IMG/VR virus record: IMGVR_UViG_3300028591_000087
Coordinates: 64,001 to 128,000 of that record
From: a virus
Taxonomy: Duplodnaviria; Caudoviricetes
DNA: 64,000 nucleotides
Strand: one strand, 5' to 3'
Shown here one piece after another: positions 1 to 63,445 of this stretch (positions are counted from its first letter, which is position 1; each line of letters starts with the position of its first letter). The notes beneath the pieces are model-generated. The model made no database searches, had not been told where the DNA came from, and saw nothing but the letters and a program-made list of their open reading frames with translations. A program made the position numbers and the translations under genes.

Positions 1-552
1 TTTAGTTAGTGGTGTGTAATACGTGGTCCAGTTGAAACTAAAATAAATACTATTCAAAAGGCTGGTATTGTTGCAGATGTGCCGAATTTGACTCTTGATA
101 TATATATGGCTGATACTGAAAGAAATAGACGTACATTTGAGAGATATGTGAATTTTGAGTTTGATGAAAGATTTTGGAAAGTATAGGCTGTGGATTTTAT
201 AAGTACACCTGGCGTGTATGAAATTGTAGCTGAAGAGGATTATGAATGTCATAATCATGAACAATATTTACAAGTTGAGAAACCAGAACCAGTGCCGGCA
301 GAGGTAAATGAGATTTTAGGTGACGCTTCAATTAAACCAAGTGAGAAACATTGCTATATGATGAAGCTACCTGCCGTAGGTGAATGGACAATTACATTAC
401 CGGCAACTAAGAATAAAGAGATAGATGATGTAATGGACTACACTATTGATGGTGATAAAATCTTTGTTACTTGGACAATGTTGCGGTCTGGATCATTTAT
501 ACTTCATTATGGTGAATATGAAAAAACTGTAAATGTTGAATCATTATTTTAA
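1..552 (+). CDS. Virion neck/head-tail connector-region protein, 5'-truncated
   Basis: Frame open from base 1 when TAG (7-9, 184-186) is read as Gln: ...VIRGPVETKINTIQK...FWKVQAVDFISTPG...; ends in TAA. Function inferred from position upstream of the tail tube gene. Confidence 0.6.
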
Positions 553-566
553 GGAGAAAATGGAGT

Positions 567-1097
567 ATGAAAGTCGGAGAGGAATTTTTCAATCCTGAAT
601 CAAGTTTTTTAATTATTGAAAAGGATTTAGAAAAGATTGCTAATAAAATGCTGAAAAATCAACGGCTTTTAAAATTATTGCATTACCGTGAGGCGAATGC
701 ATTAGACAAGCCTAGTTTAACACAAGCTGAAAAATTAGCATTAATAAACCATGAAATAAAAATTGTTCCAAAGATTGACATTGAAAAAGAATGTCCTATT
801 TATGTGATTATCACTTTTGATAATTTTACGCCGAATGTGAATAATGATAAATTTAGAGATTGTACTTTAAGTTTTGATATTTTTTGTCATCCTGATCATT
901 GGAATTTGGGTAACTTTTAGTTACGTCCTTATAAAATTGCGGGCGAATTAGATGCTATGTTTAATAATACAAAGATGACTGGTATAGGAACATTATAGTT
1001 CATGGGTGCTAATAATTTAGTACTTAATGATCAATTGATGGGTCTTACATTATTGTATAGATCTGTACAAAGCACAGAGGATACGTTACCAGTTTGA
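567..1097 (+). CDS. Putative tail completion/terminator protein (176 aa)
   Basis: Track ORF 567-920 continues through TAG 918 (GNFQLRPYKIAGELDAMFN) and a second TAG to TGA 1095-1097. Function inferred from position. Confidence 0.6.
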
Positions 1098-1852
1098 ATA
1101 AGTTAATGTTATTAACTGGTGTTGATGTTCCAATACCATTGTTATAGTTAACTTTGCATTAGCCAACAATTCGAGAAATTTCTTATATGGGTGAATTGAA
1201 TTATTTTTCTACATTATAGATATTGTGTTTTGAGAAAAATACTATAATAGCCTCTAACCCAGAGGGCGCTTCTAGTTTATCTAATATGACTGATTTTCAG
1301 ATATTTATGACATTGATAAACAATCCAGACGTAAAAGAAAGATCACGGATTTAGGGTAATCTTGTTGATGTTTTGACAATTTTATTTCCTGGATATGTTC
1401 CTTAGATTATGCCGAATGGATTAGGAATTATGCTGAATAATCCTGAAAAAAAACATAACTTAGTTATTAATGATACAAATTTTGATATATTTAAGAAATC
1501 ATTGATGGAAGTCACTGATATACGCAATAGCGTAGGTGGCGAGAATTCCGGTTTTAATCCACGAAGCAAGAAAGCGGCCGCAATTGCGGCTAAGATAATG
1601 CGAGGACGCGCACGAGCTGCAGCCGATAAAGGCTATAATGGTGATGGCGTACTCGGTAGATATGTTTCTATTCTCACTGTCGGGCTATCGTCCATGAGTT
1701 TAGCTGATTGTCTAAACTTAACAACGTATCAGTTGTACGATCTTATTGAACGGTATGGCTTATACATTGGGTGGGATTTAGATATACGGTCACGTCTGGC
1801 TGGCGGTAGTCCGGATAATAAACCAGACGACTGGATGAAAGATTTACATTAA
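1094..1852 (+). CDS. Conserved tail-region protein, possibly chaperone-like (252 aa)
   Basis: TTG start overlaps the previous TGA (alternative ATG at 1106); reads LLTGVDVPIPLLQLTLHQPTIREISYMGE through several TAGs into track ORF 1409-1852; ends in TAA. Confidence 0.7.
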
Positions 1853-1870
1853 ATAAGGAGGAAATAACCT

Positions 1871-2905
1871 ATGAAATTTGGTGTACGTGAGATTTGCGAC
1901 GTCGTTCTTAAGAGAAAAGCAGCTGGTTATTTCGGCAAGTTGTATCTCGATAAGAACATGCCAGTTCTCTATTTTGATACCTTAAAGACCTCTAGCTTAG
2001 AGGGTCAGGCAGCCACCGTTTATGCACAGGGTGGTAAAGGTAATCCACGCTTGGTTGCATGGGAAGGTGACAGAACTGTTACATTCACAATGGAAGATGC
2101 CTTGATTTCTCCAGAAAGCTTCTCTATTCTTTCTGGTGCTGGCTTCATTGATGCAGAAGATGGCGCTCCAATCTATGTTCATACAACTGAACAGGTTGAA
2201 ATCAAGAATAATACTATTACTCTTTCTAAGAAGCCTGCAACCAAAGGTGAAATGTACTTGTTACTTATGACCGAAGATGGTTCTATTAATACAAGCAAGC
2301 TTCCTATGAAGTTACCTACTGCTACTGTTGCAGGTATTGGTGATGATCTTAGTTTAAGTCTCTCTACTGCATTCCAGGCTTGGGAAACTGAATACAACAC
2401 TGATACTCGTCACGTTGAACTTCGTCAGGCTGGCGTTTTGAGCGAAGTTTCTGCACCTGTTGGTGTAAGAACTGAAGCTGCTCTCCATGCTGGTGATGGT
2501 GACTATATTATCGGTGGTACCGAAGCAACTGATGACCAGGGTTCTGTTATCTATGTAGATTATTATGTAGAAGCAAAGTCTGGCGCAAAACAGATTGATA
2601 TTGAAGCTTCTAAGTTTGGTGGATCTTACTATCTTGAAGCATCTACATTGTTCCGTGATCAGGCAACTGGTGAAGATTATCCAGCAGAATTCATTATTCC
2701 TAATTGTAAGGTACAGTCTAACTTTACCTTCACAATGGCTCCTACTGGTGATCCTTCTACCTTCACCTTTACGATGGACGCTTTCCCAGATTACACTAAG
2801 TTCGACAAGACCAAGAAAGTAATTGCTGCTCTTCAGATCGTTGAAGATAAGGAATTGTTTGGTGCTGTTGCTGGTGGAAGTCAGGAAGAAGAACCAAAAT
2901 TATAA
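1871..2905 (+). CDS. Major tail (tube) protein
   Basis: AAGGAGG RBS; tail-tube-like motifs LYFDTLKTSSLE, YAQGGKGNPRLVAWEGD and FTMAPTGDPSTFTFTMD; no TAG; followed by a terminator. Confidence 0.8.
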   Translation: MKFGVREICDVVLKRKAAGYFGKLYLDKNMPVLYFDTLKTSSLEGQAATVYAQGGKGNPRLVAWEGDRTVTFTMEDALISPESFSILSGAGFIDAEDGAPIYVHTTEQVEIKNNTITLSKKPATKGEMYLLLMTEDGSINTSKLPMKLPTATVAGIGDDLSLSLSTAFQAWETEYNTDTRHVELRQAGVLSEVSAPVGVRTEAALHAGDGDYIIGGTEATDDQGSVIYVDYYVEAKSGAKQIDIEASKFGGSYYLEASTLFRDQATGEDYPAEFIIPNCKVQSNFTFTMAPTGDPSTFTFTMDAFPDYTKFDKTKKVIAALQIVEDKELFGAVAGGSQEEEPKL

Positions 2906-2918
2906 TTGAATGACAATA

Positions 2919-2953
2919 GGGGAGATACGAATAAGTATCTCCCCATTTTTTTT
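2919..2953 (+). terminator. Rho-independent terminator
   Basis: GGGGAGATAC-gaataa-GTATCTCCCC followed by a T-run. Confidence 0.85.
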
Positions 2954-2976
2954 ATTACGCGGAAAAGGTGATGCTA

Positions 2977-4206
2977 ATGAGACAACATGTTACTAATTTA
3001 AGTTATTTTCATGTTGAAGCTAAATATAGAAGTTAGTATGGCAATGTACCTCCGCAACAAATTTTATAGATGGTTCATCAAGAATTATATAATAAATATA
3101 AAAACGTTGCATGGGGAAAAACGAAACAATCTGGCGAAGGTACTCCAGCTGAGGCCAAAATGTTACAAGATTATTTACAAGATTTGAAAAAGGTTGCTAA
3201 TGAAATGACTGGATCTGGGGAAAAAGCAGATAATTTAATATCTGGAATTAGTAAAGAAATATTACAATCTGTGCTTTAGACTTCTAATGCTGGTAAGTAT
3301 TTTATGCAACAATGGATATAGTATGGACCTCAACAACGAGGAGCTGTTTTTGAACAGGAATTAGGTTAGGTTTTTGCTGGAACATTTGAGGTTGCTAGCG
3401 GAGGTAAATTTAAAAGCGATGGTTCCGATTATGTTTGGGGCACTTAGCAAGTTGATATTGGTGGAGCAAAAAAAGATATATTAAAAGAGTTGGCAAGAAA
3501 AGTTGGCCAAGAAGCTATTAAAGATGCTGGCAAATATTTAGATAAACGTTTTTCAAATGCTGAAATTAATCCTCTTATAAAAGATATGATACAAGTTGAA
3601 GTTAATGGTAAAGTAGATATTGCTGGTATGAAATGTGAATATAATTTTTCTGCTGAACCAAAAAGTAAACTAGTGACAATTGCTGAATTACTTCAAAAAG
3701 CTACAATTACTGCAAAATCTTATGCATCTAAGCAAAGATCGGGTAATTGGATAGATGAAAATGGAATTCGTCATTATTTAAATGCAACAATTAAAGTTAT
3801 TCATTTAGGTTCTACATATTCTAAACGTATTATTATGGATACTTTGACAGGAAGAGTACCGATTAAAGTTGCTTTAAGTTATCAAATTGTTATTCAAAAT
3901 AGTCAAAATGTTGATGTACAAGTTGCTTTAAGTAAATTACGTTTTATGTATGAATTAACTGGTGTTGGACAAAAATATGTTGATGACATTTATAGAAAAT
4001 GGATGGCGGAAAATGGGGCATTAGGTGCTAAATATCTTATTTATAATGACCCTGCTTCATTAAATATTTATGTAAAAAGTAGTGCTGAATTAATTATGGA
4101 AGCTGAAAAAGCTATTAATGAAGTAATTGATTGGAATAATAGTAAAATGGAATGGGGCGCTAGTTTATCTAAACAACTTGTTAGTGGTGGAAATTAGTCA
4201 ATTTAA
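2977..4206 (+). CDS. Hypothetical protein (409 aa)
   Basis: AAGGTG RBS; track ORFs 3070-3279 and 3490-4197 share a frame and are joined by TAG read-through; ends at TAA 4204-4206. Confidence 0.75.
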
Positions 4207-4223
4207 AAATTTTTTGGTATAAT
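4195..4223 (+). promoter_or_regulatory. Sigma-A/70-like promoter with extended -10
   Basis: TAGTCA-N17-TATAAT with TG-N before the -10, followed by an AAGGAGG RBS. Confidence 0.55.
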
Positions 4224-4246
4224 AAGAGAAAAAGGAGGCCAGAAAG

Positions 4247-4771
4247 ATGGCTAAAGTTAGTTTTAATAAAATTACTCCAATTAAATCTGGAGAGATTAAA
4301 GAATTAGAAATTAATGGCGAGAAGATTATAGTAAAGCAATATCTTCCTACAGATGAATTAACCGCATTAATTGTAGATGTAATGAATTTTACATTTGACA
4401 ATGATGGATTTGTAAGTCCACTTAGATATGAAATTTATAGTAAAATGTATATTGTTAAATATTTTACTAATATAAATATTACAGATACAATGATTGATAA
4501 TATTGAAAAGACTTATGATTTATTAGTTTTGAATAATATTATTAATCAAGTATTAGATAGTATTCCAGATGACGAAATTTGTCGTATTGAAAACATTATG
4601 TGGGATACTATGAAAAAGATTCAAGAATATAATACTTCTTTTATTGGTTGGATTAAAACAACAGCGAATGATAAAGCATTGGCAGAAATGGATTTACAGA
4701 AAATTGTAAGTGAATTACAAAATACTGAAAATTTTGAAACGGTAAAAGAAGTAATGGAAAATATGACCTAA
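4247..4771 (+). CDS. Putative tail assembly chaperone
   Basis: 174-aa acidic helical protein directly upstream of the tape measure gene; no TAG. Confidence 0.6.
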   Translation: MAKVSFNKITPIKSGEIKELEINGEKIIVKQYLPTDELTALIVDVMNFTFDNDGFVSPLRYEIYSKMYIVKYFTNINITDTMIDNIEKTYDLLVLNNIINQVLDSIPDDEICRIENIMWDTMKKIQEYNTSFIGWIKTTANDKALAEMDLQKIVSELQNTENFETVKEVMENMT

Positions 4772-4793
4772 GAGCCGAAAGGCTCTTTTTTTT
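4771..4793 (+). terminator. Terminator/attenuator between chaperone and tape measure genes
   Basis: AGAGCC-GAAA-GGCTCT followed by a T-run. Confidence 0.7.
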
Positions 4794-4817
4794 ATGAGAG
4801 AAAGGAGTTGACAATAA

Positions 4818-7800
4818 GTGGCAGGAAATAACAGAGTGCAGTACACAATAGGTGTAAATGCTGATACTAAATAGGCTGACGCGCAATTGGCTAAATTAAG
4901 TTCAACTCTTGATAAGATATAGAAATAGGCTGCAAGTAAAGTTACATTAGATTTAAAAATGGATAGAGCCGCAGAGTCTGCTAGAGTTTTATAGCAATCT
5001 TTACAAAAAGCAACTAATATTGATACAGGAAAATTAAATTTATCTAAATTTAATCAAGAATTACATCAAGCTGGCGTTTCTTTAGAAGAATTAACTTCTA
5101 GTTTATTACAAGCTGGTTCTAGTGGTTCAACAGCTTTTGTTCAATTAGCTTCGTCTATTGCTGGAGCAGAAGTTCCTATTAAGCATATGAATAGTACACT
5201 TGCAAATTTTGCAACTACTTTAAAAAATACAGTTAAATGGGAAATTTCTTCTAAATTAGTCCATGGTGTAGAAAGTTTTTTATCTGGTGCAATTAATTAT
5301 GCAAAAGATTTAAATGGTACACTTAATGATATTCGTATTGTTACAGGTGCTTCTATTGCGGATATGGGTAAATTTGCTGATCAAGCAAACAGAATGGCAA
5401 AAGAATTATCTGCAACAACACAAGAAATTGCTAAAGCATCTTTGATCTACTATCAACAGGGTGATAGTGCGGAAATGGCTGCGAAAAAAGCTGCAATTAC
5501 AACAAAAGCAGCAAATGTAGCATTTACCGCGTCTGCGCAAGAAATGTCAGAAATGTTAACTGCTGTTTGGAATTCTTATCAAATGGGCGAAGATCAACTC
5601 GAACATGCTGTTGATGTTATGGCTCATTTAGGTGCAACTACTGCATCAAGCATGGAAGAAATGGCAACAGCCATGCAGAAAGTTGCTGCTACGGCGAATA
5701 ATGTTGGTGTATCTATGGAATAGATGTCTGCTATTGTTGCTACATCTGCTTCTGTTACAAGACAAGCTCCGCAGGTTATTGGTACTGCTTGGAATACAAT
5801 TTTAAGTCGTTTAGGTGGTTTAAAATTAGGGGAAACACTTGAAGATGGCGTTGATCTTAATAAGTATTCTAAAGCATTAGCATCTATTGGTGTGCAAGTA
5901 TTAGACGCGACTGGTAACTTAAAAGATATGGGTGGAGTTGTTGATGAAATTGGTGCAAAATGGGATACAATGACTCGCGCGCAATAGTCTGCATTAGCAC
6001 AAACCATTGGTGGTACTCGTCAATATACATAGATCTTAGCATTTTTTGATAATTTTGATAAATATTAGAAAAATTTATAGACTGCAAATAATTCTGAAGG
6101 TGCATTAAATAAACAGGCTGAAATTTATGCTCAATCTTGGGAAGCAGCTTCTAAGCGCTAGAAAGCTGCATTGCAAAATGTATTTACTTAGGTTATTAAT
6201 GATGAAGCTATTATTAAAGTTACAAATAGTTTAACAACTGTAATAGATCGTATTGGAGATATTGTCAAAGGATTTGGTGGAGTTCAAGGTATTTTATTAA
6301 CTTTAGGCGCCGTAGCAATGAAAGTATTTAATAGTTAGATTGCTACAGGTATAGATTCTGCTTTAACTAGAATTAAAAGTTTTGGAGCTATGCTTGGTTA
6401 GGCTAGAGTTATTAGTAAAAAACATGGAAATGAACGTACTGTAAGAGATGCTACTGGCCATCCAGTATATGATGAAAAAGGTAGAGAAAGAAAGACTATT
6501 GTAAATGCTGAAACTGGATTAGGAGTTGATGCAAAAACTAGATTAGGTCGTTTTATTGGTGCTATAAAACAATAGGGTAATTATGAAATGCGTCAACAAA
6601 GAGCGGCTATATAGGAAAGTAAAGCATAGATTAATGCTTCTATTTCAGAACCAGGAACTAATGCGGAAGGAATTGCTTAGACTTCTGCTTAGAATTTATT
6701 AACATTAAAAGAAAAATTATTAAATACTGAATATAAGTTAAGCGCAGCGTAGTAGAAAGTTGCCTAGGAGGCAATTAGTGCTTATGGAAAAGAGTCAGAA
6801 AAATTAGTTGAATTAATTTCTAAATCTGAAGAATTAGAAAAACAATAGAGAAAGCATCATAGTGAACAAGCCAGTAGTTTATATTTAAGTAAAGGTAATA
6901 AAAAGGGTGGCAAAAAAAGTAAAGCTAAAAAAATGAATGTGTCAGATATATAGCAAAATCTTGATAAATATGTTCAAAATGCAACGGTAGACCAAGTTTG
7001 GCAAGATATGTCTGTTAACGGCGAAGAAAAATTAGAAATGAAAGATTGGCAAAATGCTGATAAAAATTGGAATGCTTATTATCGTAATACTTTAGGGACT
7101 AGAGTTGGACAAATGATTGAAGCTGTTAGCGGTGATGAAGGTAATAAATTATAGGAATTATATAATAAAATTGGAAAATTGCATGATAATGGTGATGATT
7201 TATCTAGTGTAAAGTCACACGTTAAAGAACTTATTGAAGAGATGAAGCGTTTAGGTACTGAAGGAGCTAAGGGCGCTGAAGAAGCAGAGGCAGCATTAAG
7301 CAAACTAGGAGATGAAGGTACTGCAGCTTTAAATGAAGCTCAACAAGAGGTATAGGAAAGAAGAGAAAGTATTCAAGAAATAGGAAATTAGTTTGCAAAT
7401 ACAGAACGATCACGAGAAAGCGCAGAACAAAGTTTAGAAGAAAAATATCAAACTACTAAATTTGCTCAAGGAATGGCTAAAGTTGCATCTGCAGCAATGA
7501 CTGCGATGTCTTCTTTTAGCGCAATGGAAAATACTTTTTCGATAATGAGTGATAAATCAGCTAATTTTTCTTAGAAAGTAACTTCTATATTAAGTACTGT
7601 TGGTAATTTAACTAATGCTTGGTCTCAAGGTCTTATTAGTGGTCTTACTGCTACTATATCTGCTGGGCTTGGATTATTAATAGCTCGTTAGGAATAGTTA
7701 GAAAAAAATAATCAAGCATCACGTAAACAAATTTCTGATGAAATAAATGAAAATACTAATAAACTAGTTGAAGATACTGAAAAAGCTGTTGAAGCATTAA

Positions 7801-10800
7801 AAGAATATGAAAAATTAAAGTCTTAGTTTGAAGAAAATGAAATATCGAGAAATGAATATGTAGCTGGTTTAACTAATATAACTAATTCTTTAGATATTGA
7901 AGGAACACATGTTGCAGAATTAACAGGGAATTATCGTGAATTAGAAACTGCTATTAAAAATGCTACAGCAGAAAGATTAGCTTCTAATTCAAAAGAAGCG
8001 TTTATAGAATATAGTAATGCCAGAGATTCAAGTTAGACATTGTTATTATCTGCAAAAGAGCAAGATTCTAATAGCTATATTGATTTAAAGAAATTTCAAA
8101 ATTAGTCTAATACTGCTGTTGAATCAATTGATTTTTTAGAACAAATGTTAAATAGTGGTGAATATAAGGCTAATTTAAAACGATTTAGTCAAACAGATTC
8201 TGTTGAAGAAATTTTTAATTTAATGTTTGGTGGTATTACAGGAGTTTCACGTGGACAAGACGGAATTCTTGGTGGTGGATTCGCAGATGATTTATATTTT
8301 GAATCTGATATTGAAACATTAAAACAATTATCTGATCGATTTAAAGAGTTAAGAGAAAAAGCTTCTGATGTGACTGATCCAATGCGCAGTATTTATGGAG
8401 CAATTATTAGTTCTATTCCTTTTTAGAATTTAGAATCATACGTAAATAGTGCAGTAGATCCAGTAAAAAAATTATAGGCTGTATCTATGAAATCATTTGC
8501 ATCAGAATATTTGAATACTATTAATAGAAATACATTTGTATCTAATTATAAATCAAATTAGGAATAGTTTGGTAGAGATGCACTAATTCAATAGGTATTA
8601 AATGTTTGGGATAGTAAAAATATTGATATTAGTGAATATGGAGAAGAAGATGCTAAAATTTTAGCTCAACAATTTGTTGATGCATTTTTAGATGGATTTT
8701 CTGATTTATCATTTGAGACTGCAACTGAAAAAGATGCTGCCGCAATGCGAGATTAGATTTATAAAATTTTAGATAATATTTTATCTCCAGAAAAAGCATC
8801 TGAAATTAAAGACTATATAAAACAAAATTGGGATAATATTTTTAAAGATATATTTGCAAATATGAAGAACCCATATGAATTTGATTGGGGTTCTTTAGAA
8901 AATACTGAAATAGAAGATATTATTCCAAATCTTCAGGGCTTATCTGAATATAATAAAGCTACAAATAAATATGAGACATTATTAAATTATACTACTAGAA
9001 ATGATCTTACGTCTGCAGATTTACCAGATATTTTAGGTTTATTAAATGATGAAGATATTTCAAGAATATTTGATAATTAGTACAGTACTGTTAGTTCTCT
9101 TTAGTCTGCATTAGATAATGGTCTTGTAGATAAAACAAAAGTTTTAAATACTATTTTAAATGATTTAACAGCTAATATAATGCTATATTATGATGCAATT
9201 TTAGATCCTGCGACAGTTTTATAGGCTAGCATTACAAAATAGGTAGCTGATATTCGAAATAATTGGAAAACACGTATAGGAAAACCGACTATAGATGAAG
9301 AAACTTTAAGTGAATATTTAGAAAATGGGCAAAAAATTTATGATGCTGATAAAAAAGATTTAGCTAATCAAGAAGAAAAAGAAGAAGTTTCAAAAGTTTT
9401 ACGAGCTTTAATTGATAACAGCCCTTCTTTTAAAAAATTTATGTTAGAGCAACTTGCTGACATGGATACTGGACTAAATTGGGTGTCAAATGAATCTTTA
9501 ATTAATGGATATACTGATAGTGGTAGACCAACATATTTTTCCGCGTTAACTGATGAAAAACTTAAATATGTAATAGGTGTTGCTCAATAGTATTATACAG
9601 CTGATAGTATATAGAAAGGGCAACAATTAAATACAACATTAAATAATTTACCAGAAATAAGATATGGTGCATCTACATCTATTACTTCTTCTAAAACTAT
9701 CCATACTTAGGAAGAAGCTATGGCAGCTGAACAAGAAAGACAAAAAGCAAAATCTGATGCGGAAAATGCTAAACGAGAAGCTGAGGAACGAGCTAAACAA
9801 GCTCAACGAGATAAGATTAAGACTGATATTACTAGCTTAAAAGATATTAATTTAAAAAAATTAGATGTTATTACTCCTCAAATACAAGCATTATTAAATT
9901 TAGATGAACAATAGGTATTAGATTTCCATAAATTAGATACACAAAGTTAGGAAAATTTTATTACTCAAGCTTTAAAAGAAAATAAGACTAAACTTGAAAA
10001 TTCTTATGCTGAAGATGAAGAAATTAGTTTAGAAGATAAATAGATATTAGCTATATTAACTCAATTAATACAAGAACGTGAAAACGCTCCAGATAAAGCT
10101 AATTATGAAGCTGCTTATGAGGCAACCAAAACAGCATTACAAGAATAGCAAACTGAATTAACTAAAATGTAGTCCGGAGCGAATACTTTATTAAATAATT
10201 ATCAAACAGGAAAATTAGATAATGTTGCTTTAAATACATTAAGTCAAAGTGGCTTAGGAAAATTAGTTCAAGATTATCAAACTGTAACGACTGAGCAAGA
10301 ACGTTTAAATATTGCTACTCAAGCATATAGTCAATATTTACTTCAATAGCAAGAATATTTAACTGAATAGAATAAATTATACCAAGAAATTAATAGTAAT
10401 ATAAACAAAATGACAGATGAACAAAAAGAAAGTACTGATAAAATTACTGACTCAACACAATTTATTAAAGATTATTTTGGTAATGTAAGTGAGCCAACAA
10501 AAGGATTATTATTGTCTGCAATGCAAACAGTGGCTTCTAAAAAAGGAGTCGCATCTATTGCTGACATGTCAGTTAAAGAAATGCTTCCTGCATTATAGGA
10601 ATATATTGATACTGTTATTACAGAAAATAATAATGCGTTTTAGACTATTAAAGCAACTGGTATTGATACATTAACTTCAACTTGGGAAGCTGCAGCGTCT
10701 GAGGCGGCTACGGCTGCAAAGAGTTCGGTAGAAGAATGGGAAACTGCGTTCTCTAATATTGCTGTGCTAAGAGAAAAGTTATTAAAAGGTGAAAGCATTG

Positions 10801-13800
10801 CTAAAGATGTATTTGGTGATTGGACTAAATACAGAGATGCTTATCTTGCCAGTGGCGAAGAAAGTTATGAAGAATTTAATAAAAAAGTTTTATTAAATGA
10901 TGATACATTAAATTTACAGCAAAAAGACTTTAAAGATTATACAGAAAGACTTAAAAAGAATTTTGGATTAACTAGTCAAACAGTTGGACGCGATGGAATG
11001 TACATATCTGCAGAAGCATAGATGTCTGCGGAAAGAGCTAAATTTAGTCGTAAATATACTAATTTACCTGAATATGCAGTTAATTCCATGTGGGCAAGTA
11101 GTAATGAAAGAAAATTAGCAGAAACATATGTAAGACAAAATGCAAAGACATTATTACAAAGTTACTATGGAGATAGTAAAACAGAGACAGAAATTAATGA
11201 TCTAGTAGATCAATATATGCATGGCTCAGTTGAAGTTATGCAAGAAGCTGCTAATGCTATGAATAAAGTAGCTGATGGCATGGCGCAAGGTACTGAAAGA
11301 GATCAATTACTTTCTGATGTTGAAATTCAACAATAGGAAATTACTGAACAACAAAGTACAGCAAGAGAATTATTGGAGTCTATTATTACTGGTAAAGTAG
11401 ATACTCCATGGCAAAATCGTTTAGATAAAAATGAAGCAAAAAATGAACAGAAATTATAGGAATTAGCTGATGCATTAAATATGCCATTAGAAGATTTAAA
11501 GAAATTATCATATGAACAAATACAAGAAAAATATAAAGAACTTGGTATACAAATTGATAAAACTGCGGATGAATTTAATATATTAAATCAAGCAATCGCC
11601 GCCGGTGATTTTGATGGTAAAAAAGTTTCAAATTATACAAAGGATGGTCATATTTTATTTGAAACAGATTAGCCAATTACAAAATATGGTTCTGAAGCAG
11701 GATATGATACAGAAAAACTTGCTAGACAAGATTGGTTAGCAATGAAAAAATCTGGCGAAGTAAATATCGAAAACACAAAAGTTGTTAAAGGTAATGATGG
11801 AAAATATTATATACTTGATAATGTTGAAGAATCATAGGTAGAAGAAGGTAAATATACTTCTACAGCAAAATCAAATGTTGCGGGTGAATCAGAATCTGCT
11901 CTTGATCAAGCTAATAAATAGGCTCAAGAAGATTGGCTATCTAATCGTAGTAAAGAACTTGAAAAATTAGATGCTTTACAAATTGATTTAAATAATCCTG
12001 ATGTAAAACCTGCTAAACTTGTTAATGATTGGGAAGCATTAGCTAGCACTCTTGATTTAACTAACGAAAAGATTGCTTATTATTATCAATAGATGCAACA
12101 GGCTGGCGATGATAGTGACAAATTATAGGCTGCTATTGATGGAATGACTGCTTCAATTCTTCAGCAAGGCGATGTAATGCTTACTGATACTGAATCTTTA
12201 AGCTTAATGCTTTAGCAATTTGCTGAATTATATAAAGTTACTGATAAAAGTGGTAATGCTTTAAATTATAATACATTAATGGCAATTCGTTTAGCAAGAG
12301 AAACATTAAGTTTAAAGAGCATAGTACAAGATTTAAATACTAAAGTTAAAACATATACTAATAATACTGATTATGCCTCAGATTCAGTTAAAGATTTACG
12401 TAAAAAATTAAATGAAGCAAATGAATCATTTGATGATTATGTAGATAAATTAAACGATGCATCTGATGAAGAAAAAGATTTATTAAAAGCAACTAATAAC
12501 ATGATCAACGGATTTGAAGATTTAGGAAAAGAATTAGGCGTAAAACCTGAAGAATTAGATGATTATGTTGATTCATTAATAGATGCTGAAGATACTTCTG
12601 ATTTTGTTAAAAAAGCTTTAAGTAATGTTGGACAAGAAACAAAAAATGCTTTAGCTGAAGCTGCAGACTATTTTACTGGCGAAGATTTTAAAACTGATAT
12701 GGCAGCAGATGTTAATGCAGAATTAGCAAGAGATTTTAATGACATGGTAACTCAATCAGCTGCACTTTGTGATATTTCAGTTGTAGAAATGAATCAAGTT
12801 TATGATAATTTTATGGCTGAATTGAAATAGCATAGTGGAGATGTCAATGAAATCAATTGGGGCAATGTAATTCCTAATCTTGATGTAGATACATCAAAAA
12901 TACAAAGTGTATTAATTAATTTAGTAAATTTAGCAAGTTCAGTTAAAAGTGCGGTAACTGGAACTGGAGTAACTGCTTTAAGTGGATTAGTTAATAATAT
13001 TGGAAAAATAAAACAGGCTTTAGCATTAGCTAAAACCGCTAATACCAAAGGCGGCGGAGGCGGTGGCGCTTCTAATGTTAAAAATGATGTTGCTCCTACT
13101 GAATCTTCTGGTGGTGGCGGTGGTAATAAAACCAAGAAGTCGCTTGAAAAAATGCAAGAAGATGAAAAAGAACGCTATCATGAAATAACAAAGCGCATTG
13201 ATGAACAAAGCAAAGAATTAAATAAATTAGACAAAATTAAATCCGCAGCTTTTGGTGCAAATCATATTAAAGCTATTAACGATGAAATTACAGCATTAAA
13301 GAAAGAAAAAGTTTTATATGATGAATTAGCGACAGAAGCAAATAGTAATCTTGCAACTAATAGATCTGCTCTTGTCGGATTTGGTGCAACGTTTAATTCA
13401 GATGGTACAGTAAATTATGATGAGTTTATGAACAAAATTACTCGTGAGTATAATGCTGCCGTTGAGAAGTATAATGACACAGACGCAGAAGACCAGAAGA
13501 AAGCAAAAATAGATTTAGATTATGCAAAAGAAAGATATGATAAAGCAAAAGAAGCATTAGAAGATTATGAAGAAGATATGGAGAAAGTACAAGATGCTGA
13601 AGAAAATCTTCTTGATATTGTAAACCAGATTTCCGCAAAGACTCTTGAAGCTATTGAGTATAAGATTGAAGTTAAGTTTGATATCAATGACCGCGATGTT
13701 AAATATATGCAATATCTTAGAAACAAATGGGAAGACGTGTTAGATAAAGCAGATGAATCAATGGAACAAATGATCAATGAAGCAAAAGAGTATAAGGATA

Positions 13801-16109
13801 ATTTAGATGTATTACAAATTGCGAATGATGAATTGTATAAACAATATAATGAAGGTAATTTAACTGCGGCCGATTTCGCTGAAGGTCTAAAAGAAATTAA
13901 TGATAAGAGTCTTGAAATGCTTGAGAATTTAATCACAATCAAAAAGTCTATTAAAGAAGCATATGGTAATGCATTAGAAACAGCAAATGACGAACTTGAA
14001 AAGCATACTGCTGTATTAGAACATTCTTATTCTATGATGGAAAAATATATTCAGATACAGCAATTGATTGGTATGGGAACCGATTATACTGGTCTTAAAG
14101 CTATGTACGAGTTCTAGTACAAATCTAGCTTGGCTAGTGTTGAAGCTGCAAAAATTTATTTAGACACTTTAAAGGATGAAGAAGAAGTATTACAAAGACA
14201 AATTAATGCTTATGGTTGGACTGAAGTTTTAAAACAACAATGGGAAGATTTACAAGAACGTATTCGCGATGGTGAAGATGAATTAGCTGAAAAAACAAAT
14301 CAAACATTAACAACTGCACAAAATGCTTTTGCTAATGCGATCAAAGCTGCAATTGAAAAGTTTGATGAATTCGTATTTGGAGTGCGGGGCGGGCTTTCTA
14401 AGTTAGAAGCCGATTACCAGTACTATCAAGAGGAACAAGAAAGATATCTTTCTACTTCTAAAGAGTTATACGAAGTTGCTAAATTAAATAGAGAAATTAA
14501 TGGATCTTTAGATGAAGTAACTAGTCAGCTCACAAAAACTAGATTGCGCGAATTGCAAGAAGAAATTAAATCTCTTTCTGAAAAGAATCGCTTGACTGAA
14601 TATGATGTTCAAATGTTAGAGTTACAATACAAGTATGCTCTTGCTCTTGAAGATCTTGAAGATAAGAAAAATGCTAAGTCTATTGTGCGGTTAACTCGTG
14701 ATGAAAATGGTAATTATGGTTATCAGTATACCGCAGATAGCGAAGAGATTGATAAAGCCGCGCAGCAGGTCGATGATGTATTGCAATAGATCAATGAACT
14801 CGCAGCCAATCGCACTGCCGAAATTGAGCAGGCAGCTATTTCTGCGCAACGTAATTATTATGATAACTTAGAGCAAATTTCTAATGATACTAGCTTAAGT
14901 ATTGAAGAACGTCAAGCCCGCATCGAAGAGTTAACTCAACGTTATGCGGAAACGATGCAATTTAATCAAGAGCAATACAATAACGCTACTAATGCGCTCT
15001 TGACCAATCAAGAATATGTATATAAGCGTTATGGTACAAGTATTATGGAAAATACCGGAATGATTCAAGATCAGATGAATAGTGCAATTACCGCAATGAT
15101 TAATAAGACTAATGATTGGTCAGCTTATTTAAGCACTCAGTTACAGCCTGGTGGAGAAATTTATGAAGCTCTTGAAACTTATAAGCAATAGCTTGATGAA
15201 ACAAATATTTCCGCGGGACTGGGTAATCGTCAACAAGCAGTACAAAACATGACTAATAGTATTGATGATTTGACTGAAGCTAATGAAGCGGCTGATGAAG
15301 CAATTCGTAACATCGCTGATACATTAGATGATACATTAAAGAACATTAATGCGCAAACAATTGCATGGGAAGAATTAACTGGATCCATTCAAGATGCTAT
15401 TGATGCATATGAAAAATTGGCTTAGACTTCCGGCAATAAGATTGGTGAGCTTGGTTAGAATGTAGTTAATACTGGTGTAGGTGGCGAAGAAGTAAAGACT
15501 AAACCAAAGAATGTATATACTTATACCTGGGTTGATGAATATGGTATTATGCATCCTGGTGAATGGTCTTATGATAGTTATAGCTCTGCTATGGAAGGTG
15601 CTGAATAGAATATTAAATCATTCTATTCTTCTTACTTAACTGCTGGCGAGGATGATGCTGAAACAGCTGCCAATAAGGCTACATATGAATCATTAATCAA
15701 TGCAGCTTTAGGTACACGTAGTGCTCCATCTACGCAAGTTGCAACGTTCCTTCATGGCGGTATGATTGATTTTACAGGTCCTGCCTGGGTTGATGGCTCA
15801 ACTAGTTCCCCAGAATCAATCTTAAACGCTGGTGATACAGCAAATATGGTCCGCATGGCTAATTTAATTCATGATATTGATCTTGAAGCATTGAGATTAC
15901 TTTATGAATCAATTAACCAGTCTGCTCTTGGAATGATGTATCCACTTAATGGATTACTTAATAGCCAATCTATTAATCCATTTGCAACTGAATTACAACA
16001 ACATGTTACAATCACTGCTGAGTTCCCTAACGCTACTGACCATAGTGAAATCGAACAGGCATTTGAAGATATTGTTAATCTAGCCGCACAGTATGCGGGA
16101 CGTAAATAA
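4818..16109 (+). CDS. Tape measure protein (~3,763 aa)
   Basis: GTG start after AGGAG. Fourteen track fragments (5187 to 15762) lie in one frame separated by TAG. TP901-type TMP core (IRIVTG, YYQQG, IGTAWNTILSRL, ALAQTIGGTRQYTQ), long coiled-coil, C-terminal HGG..FTGPAWVDG motif; ends in TAA. Confidence 0.9.
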
Positions 16110-16140
16110 GAGGGTGGCTTTGCCACCCTCTTATTTTTAT
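16105..16140 (+). terminator. Rho-independent terminator
   Basis: AATAAGAGGGTGGC-ttt-GCCACCCTCTTATT followed by a T-rich tail. Confidence 0.85.
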
Positions 16141-16163
16141 TTGGGTAATATACATTAATAAAT

Positions 16164-16192
16164 TTGACAAGATTTTTAAAAATTGGTAGAAT
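16164..16192 (+). promoter_or_regulatory. Near-consensus sigma-A/70 promoter
   Basis: TTGACA (16164-16169), 17-nt spacer, TG-G-TAGAAT (16187-16192), just after a terminator and before an AAGGAG RBS. Confidence 0.75.
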
Positions 16193-16214
16193 ATGAGAAA
16201 AAGGAGTGAGTAGT

Positions 16215-29835: not shown

Positions 29836-29849
29836 GGAGGAAACGGAGA

Positions 29850-30182: not shown

Positions 30183-30187
30183 GCTAA

Positions 30188-32929: not shown

Positions 32930-32942
32930 GGAGGGAATATAA

Positions 32943-54885: not shown

Positions 54886-54886
54886 T

Positions 54887-55432
54887 ATGCCTAGTTATCA
54901 GTCAAGTCATACAGGAGCTTAGCATGATGATTATGTGACAAAGACTGAACTAGTTAATTTGATTTATCCAATTGGCGCTATTTATATAAGTACAAATAGC
55001 GCCGATCCTTCTTTATTATTTGGTGGCTCTTGGACACAAATTGAGGATACATTTTTACTTGGTGCTGGAAGCACATATACGGCTGGTGGGACTGGTGGAA
55101 GTGCGGATCATACACATACGACTAATGCTGGTACTACTGGTGCGCATACTTTAACAGAATCAGAATTGCCTAAAATTAGTGGTAGTTTAAGATGGCATGG
55201 CCAAGAACATGGTACACATATTTATCATATTGATGGACATTGTACTGGTAATCTTATTAATGGTATGTATCAAACTACAGGACAAACTTCAGGTGCATAT
55301 TCATATGGTGACACCGGATTTGCATTTGGTGGCGATGGTTCTCACACACATCCACAAACATCCGTTGGTACATCTTCATCATCAAATCTCCCGCCATATT
55401 TAGTAGTTTATATTTGGAAGAGGGTGGCATAA
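54887..55432 (+). CDS. MPSY-tag protein with gp10-like/short-fibre C-terminal domain (181 aa)
   Basis: MPSYQSSHTGAQ(TAG)HDD; YPIGAIYIST...GGSWTQI...NLPPYLVVYIWKRVA. Confidence 0.8.
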
Positions 55433-55900
55433 TTGCCTTCATATAATTCACAACATACTGGTTTACAAATTGATAATGGTATTATCGCCGCCAATGCGGC
55501 CTTGTCTAAATCTGAGGCTTCAACTACTTATTTAACATAGGCTAAGGCGGCTTCTACTTATTTAACATAGGCAAATGCTTCTACTACCTATTTAACACAA
55601 ACAAACGCTGCCAGTACATATTTTCCTAAATCAAACGTATTTATCATAACAGATAAAACTGTTGCTATTGCGGACTGGGCATCTGATGCCACCTATACTG
55701 CTTATCCATATAAAGCTATTGTTTCAGATTCTCGTGTCACAGCGAGTACATATTGTGAAGTTGTATTTAATTTGACAGATGCAACTTCTGGTTATTTTGC
55801 CCCAATTTGTAATAGTGTTGCGGGCGGAATTGAGATATGGGCTAGTTCCATCCCTTTGACCGCAATCACTATTCCAACTATTAAGTGTACGATAGGATAA
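55433..55900 (+). CDS. MPSY-tag protein with 10-aa repeats and a beta-rich C-terminal domain (155 aa); absent from the ORF track
   Basis: TTG start; MPSYNSQHTGLQIDNG; TAGs at 55538 and 55568; YPYKA...FAPICNS...IEIWA...AITIPTI; ends at TAA 55898-55900. Confidence 0.8.
55517..55620 (+). repeat. 30-nt tandem repeats (xSTYLTQ units)
   Basis: TATTTAACA-TAG, TATTTAACA-TAG and TATTTAACA-CAA at a 30-nt period. Confidence 0.9.
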
Positions 55901-55913
55901 GGAGTGAATATCA

Positions 55914-56138
55914 ATGGCATCAGGCGGTGTAGCCGTTTGGCATACAACAGATTTTGATTATTATAAGGTTAAACTATATAAAAATGGTTCCTGGAAGGGA
56001 GCTACTCCTTGGGTATACACTGACGGAGAGTGGAGAAAAGTCGGTGGCGCAAATTGCCTGATGATTGAGTGGTATGACAAGAATGGCAATTTGATGGTTG
56101 ATTCTCAAGGAAGAACAATTTTGGTACGTGATAGATAA
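55914..56138 (+). CDS. Small Trp/Tyr-rich virion protein (74 aa)
   Basis: AAGGAG RBS; two YxxGxW units. Confidence 0.65.
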   Translation: MASGGVAVWHTTDFDYYKVKLYKNGSWKGATPWVYTDGEWRKVGGANCLMIEWYDKNGNLMVDSQGRTILVRDR

Positions 56139-56713
56139 TGCCAAGTTATAATTCTACCCATACTGGTATATAGATTGATAATGCCGTTGACACTTACTAG
56201 ACTCAATCTTAGGTTTAGGCTTTAATTAATAGCGCAATTGAAACAGCTGTCGCGCAAACCAAATTAGCTATGTATCCTATTGGGTCTATATATATGTCAT
56301 TGCAGAATACAAATCCTAGCGCATTCATTGGTGGTACTTGGCAATAGATTAAAGATACATTTATACTCGCAGCGGGAGATACTTATACTGCTGGTGATAT
56401 TAGCGGCAAAGCCACACATACACATACAACGATAGAAACTACTACAGGAAGCCATATATTAACAGTTAATGAAATGCCATCTCATAGACATGCTACTTCT
56501 AACTATAATGGTGGCGGTAATAGCGCTGGACATGCAACTACAAATGCATATCCACATGGTGATAGAAATTATTGGAACTATAATAATCCTGGTTATTCTA
56601 GTTATACAGGTGGAGGATAGGGGCATACACATACACAAGTATCTACAACTACTTCAAGCGAATCAAATATGCCTCCTTATCTTGTAGCATATGTTTGGAA
56701 AAGAATAGCATAA
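56138..56713 (+). CDS. MPSY-tag protein with gp10-like domain, paralogue of 54887 (191 aa); absent from the ORF track
   Basis: ATG overlaps the previous TAA; MPSYNSTHTGIQ(TAG)IDNA...YPIGSIYMS...GGTWQQIKDTF...NMPPYLVAYVWKRIA; six TAGs. Confidence 0.85.
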
Positions 56714-57059: not shown

Positions 57060-57061
57060 GT

Positions 57062-57451: not shown

Positions 57452-57460
57452 GGGATGCAT

Positions 57461-58018: not shown

Positions 58019-58019
58019 T

Positions 58020-58727
58020 ATGATAGGAACAACAAGTAGTATTAATCATATTATTTAGCAAGATGTAAATAATTATGATCATTTGGTTATATGGCTGGAT
58101 GGCACCGATTTTATGAATCATGGAAATGATTAGAGTTATACAATTTCTAATGGTAATAATTTTAATCAATTGGTTATGTAGACTATTAAAAATAAATCTG
58201 TTTCTACATATTATAAAAGAAGTGCTGCTGCTCGTGCAAATAGTATAATAATTACTCCAACCGCATTACATAATTATAGTTCAATTACAATGATGGCTTG
58301 GTGCGCTCGTTGCGATAATACTGACCATAATAATTTATTTACTTGTGGAGATGCAAGTAGTGGTTTTTTTGAAGCACGTTTTAGATTGACTGGAACTAAT
58401 GCAGTTGGTTATTTATGGGCATCTGGTTCATCTTATGACTATCATAGTGTAGCTGTAGGACAACAAATAAATGAATGGGGTCATATGGCTTTTATTAGAA
58501 ATGGATCATCAATAAAATGTTATTATAATGGAATTGTTGTTGACCAAGTAACTGCTTCAACAACTAGAAATTCTATTTCGATTTTTCATTTATTAGGTGA
58601 TACCTGTTGGACATCTGACACTGGTGGAGCAAGTTATTGTACAGATTATAGATATTATGATATAGCATTAAGCGATGCGGATATTTTAGAAATATACAAT
58701 GCTGGTCCGCAATAGCATAGAAGTTAA
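58020..58727 (+). CDS. MIGTTS-tag protein with LamG/ConA-like domain (235 aa)
   Basis: LVIWLDG...ITMMAW...NEWGHMAFIRNGSSIKCYYNG...DYRYYDIALSDADI; four TAGs; ends at TAA 58725-58727. Confidence 0.8.
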
Positions 58728-58741
58728 ATTGTGGTGATATA

Positions 58742-59119: not shown

Positions 59120-59131
59120 GTAGGTGATAAA

Positions 59132-60532
59132 ATGAAAGTCACCGTTAAATTAAGTCTACAATCAAATATAGATCATTATGGTACATCAATTGTAGAACTT
59201 GATATAGAAGAATATGTTAAAGGCGTAGTGCCTGCGGAAATAGGTAATGCGCGTATAGAAGCCTGTAAAGCTCAGGCAGTGGCTTCCCGCACTTTTGCTT
59301 TTATAAAAGCTAGCAAGGGAAAGCAATTGACCGATCAAAGTAGTAAAGACCAAGCCTTTAAAGCAGTTCGTATTTCCTCTTCATATCCTAATGCAATGCA
59401 AGCTGTGGAAGAAACAGCGGGGCAAGTCTTATATTACAACGGTCAATTAATAACAACAAGTTCATATTCAAACGCGAATGGTGGACGCGTTAAATCCGCC
59501 AAAGAAGTCTGGGGTAGTGATCGTCCTTGGTTGATCTCTAAACCAGACCCATATAATGGAACTAAAACCGGTGGGCATGGCGTTGGTATGTCACAGACTG
59601 GCGCAAAAAACATGGCTGCGCAAGGTTTTTCATATAAAGATATTCTCGCTTTCTATTATGTAGGAACTGAGATACGCAATAACTATGGAGAGGAGAGAGT
59701 TATGACAAAAGCAGAAAAAGTTGCTAGTTGGGCTCGTTCAAAAGTAGGTTGCGGTTATGTTTATGGTGCTACTGGTCAAAAGGCTACTGAATCAAGCGTT
59801 CAAGCATTAATCAAATCATATGGTACATCAAATATAGATTATTCAATTGTGAAGAAATGGATTGACAAGGGTGTACAAGTATATGACTGTGCGGGGCTCG
59901 TCTCAGAAGCTATAAGTGCCGGCGGTCTACCAGGTATGTCCACTGGCGCCACGTCTCAGTGGAATAAAACTACTTGGCTCAAACGTGGTACTATTGATAC
60001 TTTACCTAAGGATAAAGTGTGCTGCCTTTATCGTTAGGTTTAGGCTAATCCGGTAAAAATGCAACATACCGGCATATATCTTGGTGATGGAACATTTATC
60101 GATTCAAGAGATAGCACCAGAGGCGTCATTGGTCCTAACAAGTTATCTTCGTATAAATGGACTCACTGGGGCATTCCGAAGGGGTTATATTCGGAAAGTG
60201 ATATTGATATTCCTGAGGTGATTAAAGTGGCTTATCAAGCTAAGGTAACAGCTTCTTCTGGTTCTACTGTTAATATGCGCAAGACTCCTTCTTCTAATGG
60301 TGCATTGATCTCTAAGATTGGTATAGGACAAATTATTGATGTGACAAGTGTTAGCGGTGATTGGTCCGCGATCACTTGGAATGGCAAGTCTGGTTATATG
60401 ATGTCTAAGTTCTTGCAAAAGGTTGAGGGTTCGGAAAATAATAAGGTATGGTATGTCCGCCTCGAGTGCGACAGCGAAGAGCAAGCAAAGGCAATCGCGC
60501 AAATCCTCGCGAAAGCGAAAGCAACCACTTGA
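59132..60532 (+). CDS. Endolysin: SpoIID/LytB + NlpC/P60 + SH3b (466 aa)
   Basis: EEYVKGVVPAE, KAQAVASRT, GHGVGMSQ (SpoIID); GYVYGA, YDCAGLV, QHTGIY, WTHWG (NlpC/P60); VNMRKTPS, GYMMSKFL (SH3b); joined via TAGs at 60035 and 60041. Confidence 0.9.
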
Positions 60533-60809: not shown

Positions 60810-60833
60810 CAGTTCGAGAAAGGGTGAGTTAAA

Positions 60834-61424: not shown

Positions 61425-61469
61425 AAAAAAATAAGGGCGACTCTTAATTGAGTCGCCCTTATTTTTTTT
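61423..61469. terminator. Bidirectional terminator between convergent operons
   Basis: A-run, AATAAGGGCGACTC-ttaatt-GAGTCGCCCTTATT, T-run. Confidence 0.9.
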
Positions 61470-61869
61470 ATCCTTGTGTAGGTTTACTAATGTTAACAGT
61501 TGCTTCGATCGCATTCTTAATGTAATCGTTCAAATCTCCAACTGCTTCGCTCAAATAGGTCTGAGCCTCGGAGCCGAGCTGTTTGAGAATTGCATTATAA
61601 GTCATTTCAAATGCTTTCTTTTGCGCTTCTGCATCAAATTTACCTTGCGCTTTTAAAGCTTCAACATAAGTCTGATTGGTTGCGACAACTGTCTGTTGGA
61701 TTGTGCGGTTAAGCATATCAATGTACTTTTTGTAAGTATCATTCTTTGCTTTTTCCTTGAACTCTTGTGCCTTGATATTCACAAAATGGCAAAAATACTT
61801 GACCAAGAGTGCGAGAAGAGGAATAAGAACCACACGGAATACTTCTTCAATAATTATTGTCCATTCCAT
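61468..61869 (-). CDS. LL-H-type holin-like protein
   Basis: One N-terminal TM helix followed by TNQTYVEALK...AQKKAF...IEATV. Confidence 0.6.
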   Translation of the reverse strand: MEWTIIIEEVFRVVLIPLLALLVKYFCHFVNIKAQEFKEKAKNDTYKKYIDMLNRTIQQTVVATNQTYVEALKAQGKFDAEAQKKAFEMTYNAILKQLGSEAQTYLSEAVGDLNDYIKNAIEATVNISKPTQG

Positions 61870-61873
61870 AATT

Positions 61874-62365
61874 TTACTCCCAATTTAATTCATTATTTAA
61901 TGCATGATCGGCTGCATATCCTATACAAATCGCGTCGGCTTCGTCCTATGTACAGATCTTGCCAAACTTCTCTCTAACCCACTCTTGAGCAATTTTTTTC
62001 TGAGCATTACGTTTTTTATCATTATCTTTTAAGAAATGACATTCCGCACGCCATTGATTTGGTGCCCAAATCTCGAATGGAGTATATTTAGATAGAAGTG
62101 TTTCAATAATTGCTCCTTGTAATTGAGCCAATGCTTTAAAAGTTTGTACATTATTAGTTTGTCCCTGCAAAGAAATATCTTCTATAATAACCTTATCTGG
62201 TTTGAACTTAATGAGCATAACCTATAAATATATACAAACTTTATGGATTCTTTTTAATATATCTTCATCGTCAAATGTTACTTTGCCGAAGTCGGTCAAC
62301 TAACCATCTTCAAAGATTGCCCACCCGCTAGTGCGGGTAGCCTAATCAAGGGCTAGGATTTTCAT
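61874..62365 (-). CDS. ruvC: RuvC-like Holliday junction resolvase (163 aa)
   Basis: MKILALDQ(TAG)ATRTSGWAIF, VIIEDI, LAQLQG and CTQ(TAG)DEADAICIG; four TAGs; ends in TAA. Confidence 0.85.
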
Positions 62366-62948
62366 CCGTAGAACCGAATCCACCCTCGCGTTCGCCATTT
62401 GTCACATCGTCAATTGTTGTTCCATATTGGAGGAAGACACCTTGACCGATACAGTCGCCTTTTTTCAATATAATATCAAAGGGTAGTAGATTAATAATTT
62501 GGAAATAGATGTGTCCTTCATTGGATGGATTATTATAATAATCTGCATCAATAATTCCAACACCATTTCCTAATATCAGCCAATGCTTTAATGAAAGGCT
62601 GGACCGCACACTTAATTGTAAATACCAATCTTCTGGCATTTTAGCCTTAATTCCTGTTGGAACAAGTGTAACTTTCTTTTTGTATTTCTTTACAAAAGTG
62701 GCAGTTGTGTCAAGATTATATGGAAGACTCTTGATAAACTCCTCAAATGATCCATAGTATGTAGATAGATCCTTTGCTAACTCATTTGCAAAGTCAGCTT
62801 CAATAGCACTTAGATAACTCGGTATGACCGTATCTTCTGCAACGTAGAAGTCATAACCAGCAGATGCTTTTGTTTTCCGAACTGGAATTTTAATATCTGG
62901 ATCATCTTTATACTGTTCAATTTTTTCAAACTTTGCGTCAATAGTCAT
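62346..62948 (-). CDS. dut: Trimeric dUTPase
   Basis: All five motifs present: AGYD, RSS, GIIDADYY, GQG, REGGFGST. Confidence 0.95.
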   Translation of the reverse strand: MTIDAKFEKIEQYKDDPDIKIPVRKTKASAGYDFYVAEDTVIPSYLSAIEADFANELAKDLSTYYGSFEEFIKSLPYNLDTTATFVKKYKKKVTLVPTGIKAKMPEDWYLQLSVRSSLSLKHWLILGNGVGIIDADYYNNPSNEGHIYFQIINLLPFDIILKKGDCIGQGVFLQYGTTIDDVTNGEREGGFGSTDENPSP

Positions 62949-63171
62949 AGCTTACTTTTACACCAGATACAGGATCTTTTTCGTTATTAATAACTTTCTT
63001 AACCTGTACAACCTGGTACTCCTCTTCAGTTTTCTTGTTAAATTTAGTGGTGTATTTAAATGACTGCAAGTCATATTCTGGCGCAGTATTAAATTCATCA
63101 CGTAGTTCCAATGCTTCATTTACAGTATCCACACGATAGGTTTCAGTTACGTTTAAAAGATAACGAGCCAT
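62938..63171 (-). CDS. Hypothetical protein (77 aa)
   Basis: AAGGAG RBS; intact ORF overlapping the dUTPase start. Confidence 0.75.
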   Translation of the reverse strand: MARYLLNVTETYRVDTVNEALELRDEFNTAPEYDLQSFKYTTKFNKKTEEEYQVVQVKKVINNEKDPVSGVKVSYDY

Positions 63172-63181
63172 ATTTTTCTCC

Positions 63182-63445
63182 TTATTTTGAATTTAGTTCA
63201 AATGTAATTTCGCCATAGTTAAATTGATGCATTAAATATTCCTGAATCGAATCACTTAAACCCAATCCAGCATAATTACATAATACATGGTCGATATGAC
63301 CAGAATTAATACAAGCACTTATTGCTTCGATTAATTTATCCATTTCTGCTATATGAAACTAAGTTTCTCTCGGTTGACCATTATCATCTAAATAAAAGAA
63401 GATAGATGGTCCAACCGGATCATAATTAAAATATCCGTATTTCAA
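63182..63445 (-). CDS. Hypothetical protein (87 aa); absent from the ORF track
   Basis: TTG start overlaps the upstream TGA; AGGAG RBS; one TAG; fills the gap exactly; ends in TAA. Confidence 0.65.

Follow-up and report, generated by a model that had tools for sequence, protein, structure and literature searches.

Reading of UAG as glutamine across the late gene block of a tailed phage, and a suppressor tRNA with a glutamine anticodon-like loop in its variable arm

Recoding of the amber codon TAG to glutamine is already known from several phage lineages, as an initial sequence-only reading of the DNA studied here had correctly stated (10.1101/2021.08.26.457843; PMC9523058; PMC10607447). In the model of Borges et al, recoded late genes act as an expression switch while replication genes stay compatible with the standard code; a code-change module with a release factor or synthetase is found in some recoded clades only and is optional for the switch (10.1101/2021.08.26.457843). 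For crAss-like phages, glutamine at TAG has been proven by proteomics (PMC9523058). phAss-1 of the proposed Phassvirus (OQ749652.1, “Caudoviricetes code 15 clade”) reads TAG as glutamine in its terminase, portal, tape-measure, and fiber genes, carries many tRNAs including tRNA-Sup-CTA, and has no aminoacyl-tRNA synthetase gene; its predicted hosts are Clostridia, and Enterococcus phage EF1 is its standard-code relative (PMC10607447). Here, we analyzed a 64,000-nt stretch of a caudoviral genome, bases 64001–128000 of the 193,102-bp IMG/VR record IMGVR_UViG_3300028591_000087, referred to as the window; positions outside it are given as genome coordinates. With a probability of roughly 0.93, the window comprises the late genes for virion, tail, and lysis of a ~173–193 kb tailed phage that infects Bacillota, and within this block UAG is a glutamine sense codon and UAA and UGA are the sole terminators. 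It represents a very clear case of this recoding.

A first line of evidence comes from the open frames. With code 11, 33% of the whole window is covered by stop-to-stop frames of at least 300 aa; treating TAG as sense lifts this to 80%, compared to 35% and 43% in controls with TGA or TAA as sense, and extends the longest frame from 1,502 to 3,763 aa. Translated with TAG as glutamine, open reading frames (ORFs) tile the plus strand from 1 to 61424 and the minus strand from 61468 to 63999. The resulting set of 36 genes occupies 96.9% of the window and contains 178 in-frame TAG but neither a frameshift nor any TAA or TGA in frame; as noted before for the merged genes, all 36 end in TAA or TGA. 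Out of frame, TAA and TGA together occur 83 times per 1,000 codons; therefore, frames of thousands of codons are not open by chance. The ribosome binding sites described at gene starts are likewise borne out: a Shine–Dalgarno-like motif precedes 21 of 34 starts at a distance of no more than 20 nt, versus 8.5% of random positions. Moreover, Pfam domains are recovered in the TAG-merged genes, and the tandem TAG-TAG at 6750–6755 lies in frame with the gene starting at 4818, as described before. Thus, the genes are intact solely under TAG read-through.

If TAG were still a stop, the window would derive from a decaying or mis-assembled phage with nonsense-broken genes, and the late region does contain 74 ORFs of at least 100 aa under code 11, 38 of which end in TAG. 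This explanation, to which we attach next to no probability, is already contradicted by the data: the 178 in-frame TAG are accompanied by neither in-frame TAA or TGA nor frameshifts, the same pattern recurs in hundreds of related contigs with TAG positions both shared and different, the genome encodes tRNAs with a CUA anticodon, and CheckV rates the record as complete. The 2,409-aa gene at 16206–23435 exemplifies this pattern, as its orthologues in five related genomes are broken by TAG only, with 3–22 per match. In two genes, a TAG precedes the TAA stop by two to three codons (4195–4197 in 2968–4206; 58713–58715 in 58020–58727); both genes may once have ended at this TAG and now be translated as far as a back-up stop. 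Beyond the late block, 13 ORFs called with code 11 (at least 100 aa) also close with TAG, which may or may not mark a real gene end. The standard code splits the window into ~90 fragments and hides its largest genes (3,763, 2,785, and 2,409 aa). Translation table 15 is needed for annotation, host-range analysis, and protein-family work on a family of at least 296 contigs.

To assign the amino acid, relatives were gathered from IMG/VR via the 344-aa virion structural protein (at least 296 stretches) and the dUTPase (249 stretches). Genes with X at each TAG were aligned to the read-through ORFs of the relatives, codons were tallied in gap-free columns with at least four of eight identical neighbors, and likelihoods were based on a substitution table derived from the same alignments. 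Across 169 related phage loci, the partners of the window TAG codons are mostly CAA, CAG, or TAG. For the surroundings at genome 54.9–80 kb, 80 IMG/VR loci yield CAA 529, TAG 209, CAG 185, GAA 170, and AAA 106 times, with all Ser codons combined reaching 60. With all alignment cells counted, glutamine leads the remaining residues by more than 1,400 natural-log (ln) units each, in both directions. Because two base changes separate TAG from its top partner CAA, the signal lies at the amino-acid level and does not reflect mutational nearness. In a tally restricted to the window, to which the three nearest genomes were added and in which each site has one vote, 67 of the 178 TAG sites could be compared with relatives. 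The majority residue is glutamine at 23 sites and Glu, Lys, or Ser at nine each, and glutamine leads Lys by 44, Glu by 53, and Ser by 60 ln units. Conversely, where relatives carry TAG, the window codon is glutamine 7.3 times as often as expected from abundance. Two of the checks proposed at the outset, coding density under both codes and homologue columns at TAG, both favor TAG as sense, with glutamine as the best-fitting residue.

Individual columns agree with these tallies. In the RuvC-like resolvase (174 aa; 61874–62398, minus strand; PF02075), TAG occurs at 62342–62344, 62300–62302, 62222–62224, and 61946–61948. The glutamine predicted in the motif ALDqA is located at residues 16–20, and the TAG at residue 19 faces Q in 118 of 118 database homologues, that at residue 151 in 114 of 120. 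In the underlying DNA, these two columns hold CAA, CAG, or TAG, with Leu only in one distant (~26% identical) RuvC subfamily; a RuvC search of the PDB returned no usable homologue. Recoding had been claimed for both strands, and with four TAG the resolvase upholds this for the minus strand, where it is also the main gene to do so. The motif RQYTq was found at residues 401–405 of the tape-measure protein. EIVqNW is indeed encoded at nt 40468, not in a LamG gene as proposed but in a 2,785-aa leucine-rich repeat (LRR) protein (37963–46320); the Laminin_G_3 gene lies at 58020–58727. In the gene entering the window at its 5′ end (1–552), the TAG at nt 7 is matched by Q in six relatives and TAG in two, and that at nt 184 by E in 44, Q in 14, and TAG in nine. 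In the gene at 1094–1852, TAG at nt 1145, 1160, and 1217 is opposite mostly Q or TAG. Standard-code cultured relatives, Enterococcus phage VRE9_4 and Geobacillus virus E3, also most often have Q opposite TAG (7 of 38 aligned columns), for example in the terminase motif RILKQ and the small-protein motif KKQL. Judged by this conservation, TAG sits at glutamine positions.

Some observations weigh against so simple an assignment. About 60% of the window TAG sites, located in fast-evolving tail genes, have no well-aligned relative; when the 1,065-aa and 586-aa tail genes were used to search for related loci, no matches resulted, since these host-range genes diverge too rapidly. Many of the covered sites have E, K, or S in the relatives, in keeping with variable surface positions, and the identity of the inserted residue is deduced from conservation alone. 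We considered that TAG could be read as Ser, or as Glu or a Gln–Glu mixture if a non-discriminating GluRS charges the tRNA and GatCAB fails to convert the product. Glu and Lys are the next commonest residues opposite TAG, and the likely hosts belong to the Bacillota, many of which lack GlnRS. The margins given above, in the one-vote tally as well as over all cells, and the placement of TAG on nearly invariant glutamine columns of RuvC make a residue other than glutamine very improbable. Ser in particular, suspected from the long variable arm and G73 of the suppressor tRNA described below, is rejected by the codon tallies.

The window itself contains no tRNA gene. The genome has 71, organized in two arrays, each of which includes one tRNA(CUA) outside the window (genome 4496–4588, minus strand, 93 nt; genome 182267–182355, minus strand, 89 nt). 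According to ARAGORN and Rfam, both tRNA(CUA) display a long variable arm and G73 and thus look Ser-like; the Rfam tRNA model scores 52.4 bits and places a 20-nt insertion in the variable region. This long, type-II-like variable arm (20–23 nt) and G73 would suit Ser, as would the anticodon stem, which resembles the phage tRNA-Ser(AGA). However, the D-arm and the A1/G2/G73 acceptor stem match the phage's own tRNA-Gln(UUG) and not tRNA-Ser, and the variable arm is unlike every Ser, Leu, or Tyr arm examined. A genome search for decoding factors, also proposed by the sequence-only reading, was successful for the suppressor tRNA only: neither a release factor (PF00472) nor GlnRS/GluRS (PF00749, tRNA-synt_1c) had a match in the 193-kb record, while positive controls worked. 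We infer that the phage tRNA(CUA) is charged with glutamine by host enzymes and outcompetes host RF1, its glutamine identity presumably being kept via the tRNA-Gln-like acceptor stem and D-arm. The tape-measure gene illustrates the demand on such a system: with 70 TAG, 0.99^70 = 0.49 of the chains are completed, so that ~99% read-through per TAG would be needed for about half of them to finish. Seventy TAG in one essential gene thereby set a lower bound on how fully the phage must silence UAG termination while encoding neither a release factor nor a synthetase.

The variable arm of these tRNAs is a more novel lead than the code itself. In the tRNA(CUA) genes of this phage, the variable region comprises 19–23 nt and forms a 7-nt loop, CUCUGAA, on a 3-bp stem. 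An anticodon-arm scan matched at least 116 stretches in viral contigs; among the matches listed are 30 tRNA(CUA) genes of 84–95 nt, 20 of which share a variable arm of a 3-bp stem and the 7-nt loop C-U-Y-U-G-A-A. The −5/+5 pair of the stem varies (C-G 11, G-C 7, U-A 2) and is paired in 20 of 20, a covariation that supports the stem. Within the YUG triplet of the 20 loops, U and G are invariant, and both glutamine anticodons, CUG and UUG, occur. The same loci provided 63 variable arms of Ser, Leu, or Tyr tRNAs, none of which had such a loop. Two other folds were rejected: a 5-bp stem with a GAA triloop, the lowest-energy ViennaRNA structure for two members, and a register with a CUGA tetraloop both fail where the −5/+5 pair flips. 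The literature searched contained no published description of this loop, and the phAss-1 paper does not mention the variable arm (PMC10607447).

The arm displays a copy of the glutamine anticodon loop (C-U-[C/U]UG-A-A) and may add to glutamine identity. Tentatively, and with somewhat more doubt than confidence, we propose that the amber-suppressor tRNA retains its glutamine identity via this miniature second “anticodon arm”, recognized by host GlnRS or by GluRS plus GatCAB, while CUA reads UAG. If true, this would be a natural separation of tRNA identity from decoding and would help to explain an efficient stop-codon takeover with 70 TAG in one gene. A geometric argument counters the proposal, as the 3-bp variable arm is too short to reach the site at which the synthetase usually holds the anticodon. 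The loop may thus serve synthetase recognition, act as a decoy, or have another role. Long-arm tRNAs with UCA or UUA anticodons in related loci provided no informative cases on the relation between arm triplet and amino acid.

Further tRNA(CUA) genes in other viral contigs have a true Ser/Leu-type body with a long D-loop and an ordinary long variable arm (L227:7318–7407, minus strand; L225, L163, L209, and L221); the L227 gene additionally has G73 and an encoded CCA end. Phages carrying them might read TAG as a residue other than glutamine. Around the suppressor tRNA, Rfam at a permissive threshold detected no ribozyme (theta or HDV-like), only tRNAs, noise, and a sub-threshold match to the Y RNA-like YrlA (30.8 bits), which lies among the tRNA genes at genome 3943–4064 (minus strand). 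A Ro60-like DUF2828/DUF7788 protein is encoded at genome 164301–165860.

The ends of the record bear on the number of suppressor tRNAs. Its last 20 kb (173372–193102) are a syntenic copy of the first 19.6 kb (1–19611) with 73–100% identity, and its closing 100 nt repeat 19512–19611 (1-based) exactly. Since complete relatives with terminal repeats measure 165.7 and 169.0 kb, assembly of the 193-kb record has probably wrapped around and continued into a second strain. In that case, the suppressor tRNAs may be those of two different strains rather than a pair within a single genome.

TAG is unevenly spread over the genome. The late block (genome 52.7–126.4 kb) contains 200 TAG in 23,555 codons, i.e., 8.5 per 1,000, and the lysis gene is recoded too, with two TAG in the endolysin. 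In contrast, every called gene from genome ~128.5 to 145.4 kb has 0 TAG; five genes of this block were assigned by Pfam to NrdD, Pol III alpha, SF1 helicase, RecJ, and DnaB. GyrA (genome 148.4–150.8 kb) is TAG-free as well. Following the timing model of Borges et al, the replication genes would be translatable in a cell resembling an uninfected one, while structural and lysis genes would require the suppressor tRNA. This reading is weakened by TAG outside the late block, e.g., in a GIY-YIG protein (seven) and a PhoH-like protein (four); the early/late split is a tendency and no rule.

Glutamine codon usage offers a second view of this distribution. The TAG-rich genes at 4818–23435 write glutamine as CAA plus TAG, whereas genes with few or no TAG (1871–2905, 36196–37899, 47083–48843) use almost wholly CAG; the 344-aa virion structural protein at 1871–2905 has 11 CAG and 0 CAA. 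Per gene, the TAG share of glutamine codons falls as the CAG share rises (rho −0.62, p 2e-4), which fits an origin of TAG from CAG by C-to-T change where tolerated. The spread might then have no role in timing, TAG being a neutral by-product of AT pressure (CAG to TAG) in the presence of an efficient suppressor tRNA, with purifying selection excluding it only from the most expressed or most sensitive genes. The 35% G+C content of the window, the codon trade-off, the exclusive use of CAG in the TAG-free virion structural protein, and the TAG in some non-structural genes are in line with this explanation. Against it stand ~22 kb of replication genes with 0 TAG, compared to 8.5 per 1,000 codons in the late genes, as well as the same split reported in independent recoded phage clades (10.1101/2021.08.26.457843), and we regard it as less likely than not.

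The gene order of the window is that of a virion, tail, and lysis module. On the plus strand, the 3′ part of a gene begun upstream (1–552; two in-frame TAG) and a 252-aa virion-module gene (1094–1852; five TAG), both defined by ORF tiling and alignment with relatives, are followed by the TAG-free 344-aa virion structural protein (1871–2905). It has no Pfam match, is homologous to a VRE9_4 protein, and is possibly the major capsid protein. A 412-aa ORF (2968–4206) holds seven in-frame TAG, including the one two codons before its TAA stop. The tape-measure protein (4818–16109; 3,763 aa, 70 TAG) is identified by PhageMin_Tail (Pfam, E 2e-27). Its homologue in Enterococcus phage VRE9_4 has only ~2,670 aa. 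At the usual ~0.15 nm of tail per residue, 3,763 aa would correspond to a tail exceeding 500 nm, provided that no segment of the protein has a different role.

Downstream, the 2,409-aa tail-module protein (16206–23435; 27 TAG), supported by its ORF and orthologues, is succeeded by five ORFs of the tail/baseplate module (23850–35171; 1065, 932, 110, 913, and 742 aa) with 29 TAG in total. The 2,785-aa protein with five TAG (37963–46320) is of the BspA type (Pfam LRR_5) and likely a fiber or adhesin. Among the small genes at 54887–56713, Pfam detects two Gp10_C baseplate-domain proteins, with one TAG (54887–55432) and six TAG (56138–56713), respectively. The Laminin_G_3 (concanavalin-like lectin; Pfam) protein at 58020–58727 has 235 aa and four TAG, and the 466-aa endolysin at 59132–60532 (SpoIID, NlpC/P60-like, and SH3; Pfam) carries its two TAG at residues 302 and 304. 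On the minus strand, the resolvase is accompanied by a TAG-free 200-aa dUTPase (62346–62948; Pfam) and a doubtful 110-aa ORF with one TAG (63182–63514).

By protein identity, the closest matches of the terminase (49%) and the virion structural protein (41%) are in the Enterococcus phages VRE9/EF1, the latter protein matching VRE9_4. Among published recoded phages, the phAss-1-like code 15 phages of Bacillota are the nearest relatives. Both proteins are ~44% identical to those of phAss-1, indicating a relation at about family level only. The genus Phassvirus is delimited by genome nucleotide identity of ~80% or more and synteny; with ~44% identity in these two proteins, the phage lies outside it, in a family of its own with at least 296 IMG/VR contigs. 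A tRNA(CUA) with the same long variable arm is present in phAss-1, where it is annotated only as tRNA-Sup-CTA; the two are 86% identical over 81 nt. The phAss-1 genome is smaller (136 kb versus ~173–193 kb), and the tape-measure gene with 70 TAG distinguishes the phage described here. With the gut phages of Borges et al (Lak, crAss-like, Agate, and Jade, among others), the phage shares low G+C content, a concentration of TAG in structural and lysis genes, replication genes that fit the standard code, a suppressor tRNA, and a presumed dependence on host synthetases. In contrast to some of the Lak and Agate phages, it does not encode an RF2, and it differs from Lak and crAss-like phages in lineage and likely host phylum. 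The suppressor tRNA itself resembles supE of Escherichia coli (glnV44) in its tRNA-Gln-like body, weak 1-72 pair, G2-C71, G73, and CUA anticodon. While supE has a normal short variable loop (class I, 4–5 nt), the phage tRNAs instead carry a 19–24-nt region with a conserved hairpin.

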